From assembly GCA_964016885.1 (NCBI GenBank), contig OZ024740.1, positions 299,398,001-299,462,000 of the forward strand: DNA of 64,000 bases, in the 5' to 3' direction. The first letter of the stretch is position 1, and the number at the start of each line of letters is the position of its first letter. Origin of the DNA: Eledone cirrhosa. Lineage: Eukaryota. Both the position numbers and the translations under genes were made by a program. The notes under the pieces were generated by a model. The model saw only the letters and a list, made by a program, of their open reading frames with translations, ran no database searches and was not told the DNA's origin. Below are positions 4,455-50,918 of the stretch, piece by piece.

Positions 4455-4766
4455 AATGGCGTTGGATGCTTAAAGCGTCCGTATGCGGTAGGCCATTTGA
4501 GCACTCGATGCTCTCATAGAGCAGAGCATGATATCACAGAAAAAAAGAGAATCAGTGTTGCGACGAATGGAATTTATTGGGCATATTGCAATCGTATTAA
4601 AATCTGCTTCGTAGAATCAAGGCGTATCTGAGGACCTCGCGATTTTCAGAGTCAGTTTCGATCATCACATCGATCGTGCCTCGAGCTGGTCGCCAGAGAA
4701 ACGATTGTAATATCACCAATAAATTCCATTCGTCGCAACACTGATTCTCTTTTTTTTCTGTGATAT
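4455..4766. repeat. TA-flanked asymmetric hairpin element (arms 4531-4595 / 4701-4766, tail 4455-4530)
   Basis: ~65-nt inverted repeat read directly; tail contains GCACTCGAT. Confidence 0.85.
4621..4717 (+). ncRNA. Degenerate type I hammerhead ribozyme with extended stem II
   Basis: GGCGTAT-CTGAGGA-(~60 nt stem II)-GAAA-CGATTG-TA-ATATCAC. Confidence 0.55.
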
Positions 4767-5383
4767 ATATATATATATATTTATGTACACACACACACAC
4801 ACACACACACACACACACACACACACACACACACACACACACACACACACACATATATATATATAAGATCTGTTTATTCTAGTTCGAATTATTTATTGTT
4901 TGATACACTGTCTTGGCATGGTCATATTATTTCAATTTGAACCAATTGCCAATGTGGGTTCCCTGTAAATGGTCAGGCCTGGCTTATCTTTTCTTTGATA
5001 TGACGTCACAAGTCACTAGAAGTTGAGAATTACGAAATCCACTTGCGACAAGCAATGGGATGTACTAGCACACCATATGGAACTTTTAAATTCCATGGAG
5101 GCAAACTCTGGTCGCTGTTCCCTGCCAAATTACGTAATTTTCTGAACATACCAGTTTCACTCGGAACGTTATCTGCAGATCGGAATCGTAGAAACTGATG
5201 AACCGTCCGGGTATCTCAATTTCCCTAGCCACACGAAGTAGTCTGCCTTACTTATAAACTAATGAGTTGGGTTAGAATTTTAATACTACGGTCTTAATTA
5301 GATTATTGAGTGAGGAAACGACTGAAGCTATGTCCACTCTATTCAATATGCCTCGTCTTTTTATATATATATATATATATATA

Positions 5384-7052
5384 GTTAAAAGAATTGAGGT
5401 GTACACACAAGTTATTATATATTGGTAAACGGAATAGAAAATGCTGACAAATTGTTCACAGTGAGAAATAGTTTAATTAGGAATAAATGAGAATTAGTAA
5501 TTGTATTGGTTAGTATTCAGTTTTGGTTTTAAGTTTTACCGCTTGCGCATTTCTAAATGCTTTTCAAAAATAATTTTGAGATAGAGCGTCCGTGATGTTT
5601 GCTCTGATCTGATTAGTTTTGGGAATTCTACCTGTTTTTATGTTAAAAAAATGGCTCCAGCGCTATTAAAATAATTTTTTGCGCCAATTCGTGTTGCAAA
5701 AATTCTTGTGGTCAAAACAATTTTGATTGGTCGGTAGAGGTCATGTGAATGTAAAAAATTGATTTTGCGCCAAGACTGAGAAATGACTCTTTCACAACAA
5801 ATATGTGTGTGTGTGCCTGTGTGTGTGTAGTAGTAGTAGTAAAGTGTTCGTTGTTGTGATAATGGTTAGCAGGGATGTGTGTGCGAACCGCAGCTTGTTG
5901 ACAGTTCAAATGCCTATTAAGACAAGTGTGGGTGTGTGTGTGGGTGTGTGTGTGTGTGGGGGGGGGGGGGGGTATAGCAGAGTAATTCGTGGTAGAGGGA
6001 TGGTTAGTAGGAATATGTCTGTAAGAGAGTGGGGATATTTTAACATGTCAAAAGATATTTTTCAGCTCTTGTCTTATACGGAGAAGTGTGTGTGTGTGTG
6101 TGTATAAGTCTCTTTGTATGTTACGCGTGTGTATGTGTGTGTGTATATATATATATATATGTGTGTGTGTGTGTGTGTGTGTGTGTGTGTGTGTGTGTGT
6201 GAGAATATGTGTGTGTGTGTGTGTGGGTGGACCAGTATTTTTTTCCTGGTAAAATGGTGTACATTATTACCAGGAAAAAAATACTGGTCCACCCACACAC
6301 ACACACACACACACATTCTCTCTCACACACACATACATATATATACACACACACATACACACGCGTACATTAACATACAAAGAGACTTATACACACACAC
6401 ACACACTTCTCCGTATAAGACAAGAGTTGAAAAATATCTTTTAACATGTTAAAATATCCCCCTCTCCCTTACAGACACATTCTTACTGAATAACCCTCTA
6501 CCACGAATTACTCTGCTACACACACACACACACACACACACACACACTTGTCTTAATAAGCATTTGAACTGTCAACAGGCTGCGGTTCGCACACACATCC
6601 CTGCTAACCATTATCACAACAACGAACACTTTACTACTACTACACACACACATACACACACACATATTTGTTGTGAAAGAGTCATTTCTCAGTCTTGGCG
6701 CAAAATCAATTTTTTACATTCACATGACCTCTACCGACCAATCAAAATTGTTTTGACCACAAGAATTTTTGCAATACGAATTGGTGCAAAAAATAATTTT
6801 AATAGCGCTGGAGCCATTTTTTTAACATAAAAACAGGTAGAATTCCCAAAACTAATCAGATCAGAGCAAACATCACGGACGCTCTATCTCAAAATTATTT
6901 TTGAAAAGCATTTAGAAATGCGCAAGCGGTAAAACTTAAAACCAAAACTGAATACTAACCAATACAATTACTAATTCTCATTTATTCCTAATTAAACTAT
7001 TTCTCACTGTGAACAATTTGTCAGCATTTTCTATTCCGTTTACCAATATATA
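5384..7052. repeat. ~1.64 kb near-perfect palindrome (arms ~5416-6252 / 6267-7052) with ~32-nt one-sided tail
   Basis: Arms are reverse complements apart from microsatellite lengths and scattered substitutions; centre ~6260; (TA)n at both ends. Confidence 0.95.
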
Positions 7053-7067
7053 TATATATATATATAT

Positions 7068-7334
7068 GCAAAAGTTCTATTTAAAATTGTTGGGATACAA
7101 CAAGTAAATATTTTATAACTGATATAAAGCACTCGACAAGTTTTTGGAGTAGATATACGATATTAAATAAATGGAAACTATATTTATAAAACCATATTTA
7201 TTTCATTATACATTTATATATTGTATTTTGTCTGATGAAGGCATACCATATTTTAATTTGGTATCCCTGAAATATGTATAATGAAATAAATATGGTTTTA
7301 TAAATATAGTTTCCATTTATTTAATATCGTATAT
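7068..7334. repeat. TA-flanked asymmetric hairpin element (arms 7153-7213 / 7274-7334)
   Basis: ~60-nt inverted repeat; tail 7068-7152 contains GCACTCGAC. Confidence 0.9.
7224..7288 (+). ncRNA. Minimal type I hammerhead ribozyme
   Basis: TATTTTGT-CTGATGA-AGGCATACCA..TGGTATCCCT-GAAA-TATGTA-TA-ATGAAATA; near-palindromic stem III. Confidence 0.75.
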
Positions 7335-7377
7335 ATATATATATATATATATATATATATATATATATATATATATA

Positions 7378-48239: not shown

Positions 48240-48760
48240 CACCTGCAATCATCTCCGTCTGTGCCGCTTCCATCTAAATTCTGTATGTTTCCCTATCTAT
48301 CGACAACCCTCACCGCACCCTTTCAACCACCATCTTCGAAAACCCTATCTGGACTTCACCACTTCCTACCCATCCAGGTCAATCACTCCATATTCCAGGT
48401 CAATCAACTCCATATTCTATTCTCAAGTTAACCGTCTCTGCTGACTCTACAGCCAAGACCAGATTTCAGCCTCGGTCTCAACACATGGCCACTCGCTCTA
48501 CCTGGCGCAGACACAACCATCCCGTTCTAAACAGCCTTCACCCATTCCTATAAAGCTGACTGCAGCTCAATATACTCCGTAAATGTCCCCTAACTTACCT
48601 TATCTTTCAATGCCTCTTATTACTCCTCTCTGATCCTGTTACATCTCGTTTCTCTCCCAAACCACGCACCACCGCCTTTAAGCGTACTCGTAAACCCCGT
48701 GACCTCCTTGCTTATTATTTCCTCGTACCAAATCTAGGACTGCAAATAGCTCCCTCTGTC
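48240..48760 (-). mobile_element. Very decayed LINE 3' fragment, probably RTE
   Basis: Weak hand-translated remnants of the RT C-terminal region. Confidence 0.35.
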
Positions 48761-50467
48761 ATACCTGTCTATTCCTTGTCAACCATACCATCATCAAACG
48801 TTCGAATCGTCATGACTGCCACAATAATCACTGCAAGATCTGTACCTCTACTAACATCTGCCATTTGCCATTTAGTCTGTTGGTCCATATCGTTTAAAGA
48901 GGTCACCGTTTGGTGGACCTGGGGGACATATGACTTGGCAACGGTATCCCTGTGGTCATCATTCCCGTTCCTCCAATTACTCCACCTAACACCTTTCTGT
49001 GGGTTTTCACCACTATATGACACACCTATGCCCTTCAGCCTTCGGAGTTTGGCGGCGAGTGACCCGTGTTATTGTGAGAAGTGGAAACATGTATGCATAT
49101 GTCACTGTCAATCTCCTTCCGTGTGCCATAATGTATGCACCACAACCTTCACACCCAAACAGTTTTGTACAAACAAACACGTAAATACACGTACATACAC
49201 AACATCTTCTACCTACATTGATATTTATTTCGGCTTCGGATGCTTTTATCATTCAAGATGGCTGATTAACATCAAGACGTGCTTTCTTCGTTAATTGTTT
49301 ACTCTTGAGTATCTTTCTTTTTCTTCTCCTTTCCAAACATTCTCCATTCTCTCTCATTCTAATTTCCGGAGAAGGTCTAGCGTCCGAAGTGTTAAGTTTC
49401 TTTCCCAAATATATCAAGTGCTAAACTAATATACCAACACTGCATTGTATTAAACTCCTGTGTTGCTTCTAGTTGAGCTTTCGTATATATATAATAAAAA
49501 TATTCATGCAGCACAAATTGCATATTAGAAGATTAAGTTGCATTTAACAACAGTTTTCGAATTGAAGGCCTCTCTTTGAAAAGACGGAAATCTAAACAGA
49601 CTTTCCACTATTTTAGCTATATACAGAGCAACATAATCTTTATGTGTTTCAGAAATTGTCTTTATAAAGAATGATTTGATAGCATTGCTACATATGACAA
49701 GCATAGCTATAATAGTCAGCTTAATTTTCATGCCTAGCATTATCTGGCAATGTGATTAATTAAATAATAAATATTTATACAGAACCAAGCGTATTTAAGA
49801 TAAATTTAATGAAGATTTATTTACAGTTTCTAAATTAGAAACTCCACAATGATGGTACACACAAAATGTATGCTATTCTCTACATACACAGAAAAAATAG
49901 AACATTATTTGTTACCTGTTTCATAGATTATTGTCCCCTCATCTTAAGATAACCACCATTATGTTTCTGCATACAAAGTGATCTTTATAACAATTTCATG
50001 TATGTCAAGTATGGTATAGATGATAGCTGAAATGATATGTCTAATTGGCATATTGTACATTCGTTTAGGGTTGTAATTAATTAAATAAAAAATATTTATG
50101 TAGAATAGAGAGAAAATAGAAGAAAGGGTGCTTAACCTTTACCCATTTAAAAATGAAGTCTCAAATTCAAAGACTGTATCATAAACGGTACAATATAAGC
50201 TGTGTTCTGCATAAATATTTATTATTTAATGAAATTTGCTGTGAGACGAATGCATCTCATGCAATTTCGAAGGATCAGCACATTTATCTTCTACATCGAG
50301 CTTTACCTAAATAGTGACTACTACTACTAGGAGAATCTGCCTAGTTTTCCTGTTTTTTCCAGGAACCATAGAACCATATTTATACTTATATATATATATA
50401 TTTATTAAAATAACAGATTAAAGTTTAAGCAAGGAATCAATGCTTCACTCTTTATTATTATAATAAA

Positions 50468-50730
50468 AGTCAGCTCAAAAGTGACACAGAGGAGACTGAG
50501 GTTAGCTGGACATGCTCACCGACATCCAGAGTTGACATTGCACTCAGTACTCCTTTGGGAGCCCCTACATGGACACACTAGAAGAGGAAGACCAAGGTTA
50601 ACGTATGTTGATGCCCTAAGGACAGACACTGGTCTGTTGGAGATGCAGGACATGGCAGCGATAATGAGGGACAGAGACCGCTGGAGAGAACTCGTCCATG
50701 GATCTCGGGAATTTTACCCGCCTTAGATAG
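50468..50730 (+). mobile_element. RTE(-X)-like 3' fragment, same family as 38075-38938
   Basis: [24 protein letters not shown]. Confidence 0.88.
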
Positions 50731-50743
50731 ATATATATATATA

Positions 50744-50918
50744 TATATTTATTAAAATAACAGATTAAAGTTTAAGCAAAGAATCGCTGCTTCCCCCTTA
50801 ACGGGATCTTCTCTGTTATTTTAATAAATATCTGCTCTAAGGTTCTTATATATTTGATATATATTTATTCTTATCGAGCCCTCTTTGGATTTTAGTCTTC
50901 AAATGTATTATTATTACT
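50744..50918. repeat. Asymmetric mini hairpin of the 45.7-kb family (arms 50744-50764 / 50812-50831, tail on right)
   Basis: Tail is the reverse complement of 45700-45783. Confidence 0.8.

Follow-up and report, generated by a model that had tools for sequence, protein, structure and literature searches.

Introduction

Penelope-like elements (PLEs) of the endonuclease-encoding (EN+) kind are described as entering (TA)n tracts as 5'-truncated copies with an inverted partner and a tail at one end (PMC3846280, PMC8557442; here and throughout, statements about published work refer to the accessible parts of the sources cited). We compared with them a 64,000-nt stretch of the Eledone cirrhosa genome (assembly GCA_964016885.1, contig OZ024740.1, positions 299,398,001 to 299,462,000 of the forward strand), hereafter called the window, in which an earlier note made from the letters alone had picked out ten islands of one design: (TA)n, tail, arm, spacer, inverted arm and again (TA)n. 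Each island is a head-to-head pair of 5'-truncated PLE 3' ends inside (TA)n, and each is a single PLE insertion that was dead on arrival. This kind of structure is already known for PLEs and is very abundant here; what is new is a counted rule for the outer ends and the result on a template shared by the two arms.

The islands share with canonical EN+ PLE insertions the head-to-head inverted copy, the single-end tail and the heavy 5' truncation (PMC3846280, PMC8557442), as well as partial tandems, a hammerhead ribozyme near the 3' end and (TA)n targets. The families behind them show EN+ PLE features, namely a parent open reading frame (ORF) with reverse transcriptase (RT) and GIY-YIG endonuclease (in neither family D nor F, and not found for family I), tandems, an inverted copy with a tail, and a type I hammerhead. 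They differ from the canonical insertions in three respects: the canonical tail is termed optional or often at one end, whereas one short and one long end is a near absolute and counted rule here; family tails measure 34-91 nt instead of 30-40; and most copies are too short to keep an ORF.

Several other systems come close. In vitro, the lizard PLE PAc, a Poseidon element, cuts and extends both target strands and uses two RT start sites that bracket the tail, with a predicted dimer, AT-rich targets and dispensable hammerhead cleavage (PMC11167929). The bracketing start sites, and in our model the extension of both strands, have counterparts here. Non-LTR (long terminal repeat) retrozymes have been defined and their PLE origin argued (PMC7229834; bioRxiv 10.64898/2026.07.22.740005). 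In Schistosoma, dual minimal hammerhead ribozymes (min-HHRs) on opposite strands, 100-700 bp apart, have been attributed to truncated PLEs and a U3-A8 variant has been noted (PMC4209133); very likely these ribozyme pairs belong to the structure described here, its ends and junctions being left undescribed in the parts of that paper available to us. Recently active Penelope families are listed for an octopus without structure (PMC13282606). The origin of PLE inverted repeats and tails is named in the field as unresolved (PMC8557442, PMC11167929).

Structure of the ten islands

All ten inverted repeats are present where the earlier note had placed them, with arms of 20-840 nt that are 89-100% complementary when each island is locally aligned with its own reverse complement. 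An extra tail lies outside one arm only in every island. The islands are flanked by (TA)n on both sides, the exceptions being intervening (CT)n at 20945 and 26900 and (TG)n at 26737. We labelled the families by island start: A (4455), B (43516), C (7068), D (20416), E (25578), F (27119), G (5384), H (7378), I (26738) and J (50744). The 3.0-Gb assembly was searched with each family, up to 40 candidates per search were scored, and copies were then traced upstream.

Mapped on natural family copies, every one of the ten islands combines a tailed with a tail-less end. The tail-less end falls at an internal TAT or ATAT of the family sequence in 10/10 families, as the note had read it when it described, for most islands, a short arm that stops at an ATAT/TATA motif internal to the long arm. 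The outer ends are fixed across copies and not random.

Pairing of a short with a long end

Below, the tail-less outer end and its arm are called short and the tailed ones long. A random sample of 80 segments of 10 kb at preset coordinates (800 kb) was screened with the ten family references and held 66 short and 73 long ends adjoining (TA)n, with 48 head-to-head pairs. Both ends could be cleanly typed in 33 of these pairs: 32 were long/short, one was short/short and none was long/long. Free choice of ends predicts 50% mixed pairs (P=4e-9 for the observed count). The rule is obeyed by 95 of the 98 pairs that were not selected by their own query, by 187/192 over all loci, a partly selected set, and by 16/16 pairs of the young family H, in which one short end lies 14 nt off. 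The rule is thus near absolute.

The long end also reads TAT/ATAT in the element, as seen from tandem read-through in families H, C, D and F. Both outer ends are at fixed TAT/ATAT sites, 34-91 nt apart, with one of each per pair. The earlier note had proposed a second, opposite-strand priming at the element's own internal TA site; an end is indeed fixed there, but because the long end is also at TAT/ATAT, internal-site priming is only half of a symmetric two-site event.

Both family H ends followed by ATAT also occur in raw Illumina reads, in about 2,000-8,000 reads per run in each of three runs, and strand-switch joints are common to all three. These runs are restriction-site-associated DNA (RAD) libraries from one study and bear on the families, not on the window's own junctions; sites where many reads stop were taken as probable restriction sites and excluded from use. 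We found no statement of a pairing rule or of a shared template in the literature searched, subscription papers (including older ones on Penelope structure) and supplements being outside its reach.

Other observations concern the tails and the short site. All four young family H insertions with multi-unit tandem arrays, a small sample, have the array end at the short site (L409/L331, L410/L327, L413/L412 and L415/L341). The otherwise unrelated tails of families H and I (7378-7454 and 26738-26819) have in common a motif of 11 nt, placed some 30 nt beyond the short site; by eye, families A and C have looser matches to it. It is possibly a protein-binding signal. A stable fold in the tail was rejected, z being above -1.6 in 10/11 tails and -2.1 in one.

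Relation between the two arms

Shared variants indicate that both arms of a pair were likely copied from the same source. Over the arm overlap of 17 family H loci, 26 substitutions are found in both arms, and 13 of these are private to one insertion; no polymorphic site is discordant, and seven private differences occur in one arm. For two independent templates the chance is about 0.006 and 0.001 for two markers, calculated from hand-counted inputs. Shared private variants are also present where the short arm is the longer one (i401, i403 and i407).

In mostly older pairs, the within-pair distance is below the between-copy median in 80/107. It is about half the between-copy distance in the subfamily-bearing families C, H and I, and about equal to it in the star-like families A, B and J (0.052 within pairs versus 0.055 between copies in family A). 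Arms in the star-like families therefore decay independently, with no ongoing conversion.

Either arm may be the longer one, so that neither can in every case be a copy of its partner. Of the family H pairs, 8 have a short arm that extends further 5' than the long arm and 8 show the opposite, the difference amounting to as much as kilobases. The arms of this family overlap by up to 2.6 kb, without poly(A), and at locus L408 both are about 2.7 kb. Small hairpins in which both arms run at least 30 nt past the short site (n=47) comprise 29 of equal length, 11 with the long arm further and 7 with the short arm further. An apparent tendency of the short arm to be longer (84 versus 32) was discarded as detection bias, the counts being 7 versus 11 after control. 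Family H junctions show 1-14 nt of overlap in 11/16 and inserts of 4-48 nt in 5/16.

Hairpins are rebuilt at each insertion

At 30 loci with a match to island A over its full length, the outer ends do not vary and each copy has its own inner junction. The inner junction also varies per copy in the further families compared, with no fixed internal structure copied as a unit. The hairpin is therefore not a transposing unit; it is rebuilt at each insertion. ORF-bearing and ORF-less hairpins of family B share the same ends, and in family C the tailed and tail-less ends exchange sides around the same spacer. Two seemingly fixed features were artefacts, namely a junction in family C (the query spanned that junction) and a 5' end in family A (candidates had been ranked by whole-island match). 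A DNA element of miniature inverted-repeat (MITE), foldback or HINE type does not fit, as the junction varies per copy.

Two other readings find little room in these data. Transposition of whole hairpins as non-autonomous units, in the manner of retrozymes, MITEs or HINEs, might be argued from the query 4455-4766, which gave near full-length matches in 40/40 of the best scored candidates, and from the ORF-less families D and F. We regard it as very improbable: the inner junction differs from copy to copy, which refutes it for families A, B, C, E, H and J, the long and short ends swap sides around a spacer, and 7/10 families extend into coding PLE sequence. That the hairpins are fold-back chimeras of the assembly arising at TA repeats is scarcely credible. 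Raw-read evidence comes from short reads at the level of the family, and RAD libraries can themselves produce chimeras at cut sites. Against this stand the thousands of raw reads with both family H end types in 3/3 runs, the recurrence of the same strand-switch joints across them, the divergence of about 5% between the arms of old pairs, and the tail on one arm that has no counterpart on the other.

A model of coupled double priming

The ends, junctions and shared variants observed here underlie a model that we consider rather probable, in which one ribonucleoprotein (RNP) primes two cDNAs on one RNA template, one per target strand, and then joins them. The GIY-YIG endonuclease, as a dimer, would nick both strands of (TA)n. 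Each cut 3' end would then pair, over about 3 nt, with one TAT/ATAT site of a single template that has two such sites 34-91 nt apart, and the cDNA begun downstream would displace the one begun upstream. Synthesis would often end prematurely, in three families at 30-50 nt upstream of where the hammerhead is predicted to cut. Microhomology would then bring the 3' ends of the two cDNAs together, and each would serve as template for the other, so that the second strands would also be supplied. Under coupled double priming, the tail and the inverted repeat would be the outcome of one event. The dimer, the single RNA molecule, the strand displacement and the mutual second-strand synthesis are steps that we infer.

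The same two-strand priming could instead use two RNAs of one source locus, held by an asymmetric dimer with one subunit per site. This is unlikely, though it has its attractions: it accounts for the end rule without strand displacement, pairs in which both arms are of great length, such as that at L408, arise readily, and one active locus per germ cell would account for the shared variants. It requires, however, an added asymmetry between identical RNAs and one source locus per event, yet several family H haplotypes coexist. Improbable as the main route is snap-back or self-priming, in which the long-site cDNA stalls, folds back and copies itself, the copy ending at the internal TAT either because the endonuclease cuts again or because the copy anneals to the other end of the target; related ideas are self-priming (PMC3846280) and 'EN-mediated resolution' (PMC8557442). 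The end rule and the shared variants follow directly from it, junction microhomology agrees with it, and 40/47 of the bias-controlled small hairpins are equal or long-further. What it cannot yield is a short arm with sequence absent from the long arm, which is seen in 8/16 young family H pairs and likewise in the window islands 4455, 7068, 43516 and 50744. Moreover, the joints 1512/1674, 1524/1686 and 1545/1681, in which one arm stops inside the tail, are present in all three raw-read runs. Fold-back of a tailed cDNA cannot give short-further pairs and fold-back of a tail-less cDNA cannot give the tail. Because short arms carry sequence missing from long arms, snap-back is at most a second route.

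Several points weigh against coupled double priming. Equal lengths in 29/47 small hairpins, with only 7 short-further, are also predicted by snap-back. In PAc the start sites are not homologous to the cut DNA, in contrast to the TAT/ATAT match here, and the accessible account reports no coupling of start sites between strands or within one insertion (PMC11167929). Genome data cannot separate one RNA from two RNAs of one locus, and displacement over kilobases by a PLE RT is a step that the model has to suppose. At least one end was not cleanly typed in 15/48 random pairs, and for about half of the typed ends no partner was detected. These sequences are AT-rich, with TAT at 3% of their positions, and where an end is flanked by TA the motif is indistinguishable from the target.

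An insertion by twin priming of the LINE-1 (long interspersed element 1) type does not fit, as the arms overlap by up to kilobases and poly(A) is missing. LINE-1 twin priming also makes two primings from both target strands on one RNA, with joining by microhomology. There the second priming takes place at a variable internal position, the inverted segments do not overlap and the end is poly(A). Here, by contrast, both starts are at fixed 3' sites and the same sequence is copied twice.

The counts narrow the options for the origin of inverted repeats and tails to a testable prediction: paired cDNAs with different start sites on one template. Ten families contribute about 60 hairpins per Mb (48 in 0.8 Mb), which extrapolates to roughly 10^5 genome-wide. 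Such hairpins build long (TA)n-interspersed clusters and are likely mis-annotated as MITEs or microRNA hairpins.

Parent families

Seven of the ten families (A, B, C, E, G, H and J) continue upstream into coding PLE sequence, which agrees with the PLE origin put forward in the note, and most islands are cis products of such coding families. The parent ORF of family E contains Pfam RVT_1 and GIY-YIG domains, family B matches the window's RT-EN copy by tblastn, and the family G parent has an EN-like region. Only the EN C-terminus was seen in the parents of families A (a GIY-YIG C-terminus about 1.4 kb upstream in locus L230) and J. Families H and C show RT and EN motifs by eye; a Pfam search of their proteins gave no match at E<=0.1.

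Family H is young, being identical over 246 nt in 40/40 of the best scored matches. Tandem or partial-tandem organisation of the kind that forms pseudo-LTRs is present in families H (five copies at 3531-nt spacing) and C (read-through from the tail into the ORF). By eye, the family H ORF has RWR, DKT, a CxCX5C linker, and CxxC and CxH around the EN E and N, without CCHH; families C, A and J have the same EN end. On these motifs we provisionally assign family H to the Hydra-type PLEs. Shared with the Hydra clade are the RWK-like motif, DKT, CxCX5C, CxxC, CxH and the lack of CCHH (PMC8557442, section 11), as well as (TA)n targets and a hammerhead. Family H differs from that clade in a unit of 3.5 kb versus generally under 3 kb and in RWR for RWK (PMC8557442), and also from its description in having a long stem III and a hammerhead core of the U3-A8 variant. 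A sequencing-run search with the family H query returned no RNA run among those listed.

Families D and F differ from these coding families. A same-strand copy lies one unit away in 12/30 loci of family D (488-505 nt) and 19/30 of family F (mostly 420-445 nt), and L194 has at least five tandem units. The longest ATG-initiated ORF is 55 aa in family D and 99 aa in family F, the latter likely spanning its TA-rich tract, and no PLE protein match contiguous with the units was found in 60 loci. By sequence, both classify as ORF-less tandem hammerhead monomers of about 504 and 426 nt, that is, as retrozyme-like. For family I, about 350 nt are shared upstream; no coding parent was found in 25 + 9 loci and no tandem copies in 9 upstream regions. 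Thus the earlier suggestion that the ORF-less islands are retrozyme-like units stands for two of the ten families and falls for seven, whose islands are stubs of the 3' untranslated region (UTR) of coding PLEs; a short ORF-less tandem unit is excluded in A, B, C, E, G, H and J by their coding sequence and is not supported in I, where no tandem was seen.

Like published non-LTR retrozymes, families D and F consist of short tandem units that are AT-rich, lack an ORF and contain a type I hammerhead. Unlike those, they carry the PLE signature (a tail, two fixed ends and a head-to-head pair in (TA)n). A word search of PMC7229834 and bioRxiv 10.64898/2026.07.22.740005 showed that 'inverted' is never used of the elements in either and that 'tail' is absent from the preprint. 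The PLE insertion signature on ORF-less hammerhead monomers provides direct structural evidence for the proposed PLE mobilisation of animal retrozymes, previously argued from distribution and phylogeny. Retrozyme-like RNAs of families D and F may be mobilised in trans by the same PLE route. Evenly balanced, in our judgement, is the fuller proposal of PLE coupled double priming by a dimeric RNP at two fixed TAT sites of a single RNA, together with the same signal and insertion by PLE proteins for animal non-LTR retrozymes.

Two further units in the window touch on this group. A second family D hairpin at 21510-21882 is inverted relative to the first, 93-96% alike and interrupted by other sequence at 21882. 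An eleventh head-to-head unit at 42158-43500 has arms at 42291-42726 and 43060-43506, CTGATGA cores at 42368(-) and 43422(+), and related copies elsewhere that end in (TA)n; its internal repeat of about 520 nt suggests another ORF-less tandem monomer.

Hammerhead ribozymes

An Rfam scan gave no hammerhead match in the window at E<=1, only spurious miRNA matches on microsatellites, and the motifs reported here came from a min-HHR descriptor. The descriptor found seven intact-core motifs in the whole window, six of them inside islands, which make up 5,462 of the 64,000 bases. In 200 shuffles of the island sequence, the number of motifs averaged 0.085 and never exceeded 1. Hammerheads are thus enriched in the islands. 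The six matches are confined to four islands (4455, 7068, 25578 and 43516). By eye, the copies at 20416 and 27119 have a damaged motif and the family of 5384 (G) a non-canonical one only, and the copies at 7378, 26738 and 50744 are truncated inside or just past the hammerhead. The statement that most islands contain a hammerhead or part of one is correct in this sense, as is the description of 43516-44742 as a PLE with coding sequence and a hammerhead.

An intact core was found by the descriptor in 7/10 family references. Cores are conserved and stem I is paired in most copies (17-93 copies per family), with two-sided stem I changes in families D (TA17/AT9) and C; in family A, stem I has 4 bp in the island 4455-4766 versus 7 bp in the family. 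Variants include a CTGACGA core in 54/64 copies of family F, a change of U4 to A in 26/30 copies of family J, and the U3-A8 core of family H in 38/41 copies. Separately, stem II in families D, E, F, I and J is flanked by a U-U mismatch that replaces the usual G10.1-C11.1 pair.

Truncation at the predicted hammerhead cut was considered and rejected: only 3/138 junction-verified 5' ends lie within 2 nt of the cut. Instead, 72/138 lie 30-50 nt upstream of it, mostly in families H, I and J. A broader count agrees (3/121 random arms at the cut) but is prone to artefacts of subfamily divergence.

Features of the islands and other elements

Table 1. Arms of the ten islands, in window coordinates; hammerhead cut sites are predicted.
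Feature	Position	Strand	Remarks
Family A tailed arm	4455..4595	-	arm 4531-4595, tail 4455-4530; 3' end of coding PLE
Family A tail-less arm and spacer	4596..4766	+	hammerhead core 4628, predicted cut after 4709
Family G tailed arm	5384..6252	-	tail 5384-5412; 3' UTR of coding PLE, C-terminal GIY-YIG-type region
Family G tail-less arm	6267..7052	+	no canonical hammerhead found by descriptor
Family C tailed arm	7068..7212	-	tail 7068-7149; coding, putative Hydra-type PLE parent in locus L418
Family C tail-less arm and spacer	7213..7334	+	hammerhead core 7232, predicted cut after 7280, stems 8/3/3 bp
Family H tailed arm	7378..7475	-	tail 7378-7454; relative of young coding, putative Hydra-type PLE, 3531-nt tandem unit
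Family H tail-less arm, 21 nt	7477..7497	+	of the hammerhead, only stem I 3' strand and predicted cut site
Family D tailed arm and spacer	20417..20818	-	ORF-less tandem hammerhead monomer of about 504 nt (retrozyme-like); core 20727
Family D tail-less arm	20819..20945	+	runs into (CT)n, then (TA)n
Family E tailed arm (subfamily tail)	25578..25833	-	hammerhead core 25794; parent ORF with Pfam RVT_1 and GIY-YIG
Family E tail-less arm	25838..26022	+	hammerhead core 25877, predicted cut after 25905
Family I tailed arm	26738..26856	-	tail 26738-26819; cut inside hammerhead; no parent found
Family I tail-less arm	26865..26901	+	
Family F tail-less arm	27116..27320	-	ORF-less tandem hammerhead monomer of about 426 nt (retrozyme-like)
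Family F tailed arm and spacer	27325..27672	+	tail 27620-27672; damaged hammerhead, core 27370
Family B tail-less arm	43516..44478	-	PLE ORF end (about 43914-44456), 3' UTR, hammerhead core 43710
Family B tailed arm	44479..44742	+	tail 44686-44742; hammerhead core 44491, predicted cut after 44525
Family J tail-less arm and spacer	50745..50811	-	cut at variant hammerhead core; coding Hydra-like parent in L247/L257
Family J tailed arm	50812..50918	+	tail 50832-50917

Further stubs of families H and J and of a family B relative lie at 51466-51590, 27692-27764, 45697-46179, 50398-50452 and 26103-26600. They include solo short or long ends and one hairpin of H type in which the tailed arm breaks off within the tail. 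In locus L041, around 1500-1812, a family A hairpin lies outside (TA)n, between two inverted tails with (ATC)n that resemble those of short interspersed elements (SINEs).

The window also holds longer PLE copies. At 10530-12850, a B-related PLE has a nearly open RT-EN frame, a hammerhead-like motif near 12550 and a tailed end; it carries a 50-nt 5' inversion of coding sequence (10530-10577 versus 10648-10694) without a TA-flanked partner. Directly upstream, at 8095-10520, is an older, C-rich and frameshifted PLE with RT and C-terminal GIY-YIG-type motifs.

A 318-nt tandem dimer at 19513-20148 begins in (TA)n and has an internal inverted repeat and no clear hammerhead; its relatives in L292 and L123 take tandem and inverted forms. 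Fragments of LINE type lie at 59869-63327 (-), with endonuclease, RT and zf-RVT, at 1125-1835 (+), an RT piece, and at 21910-22605 (-), with DUF6451.

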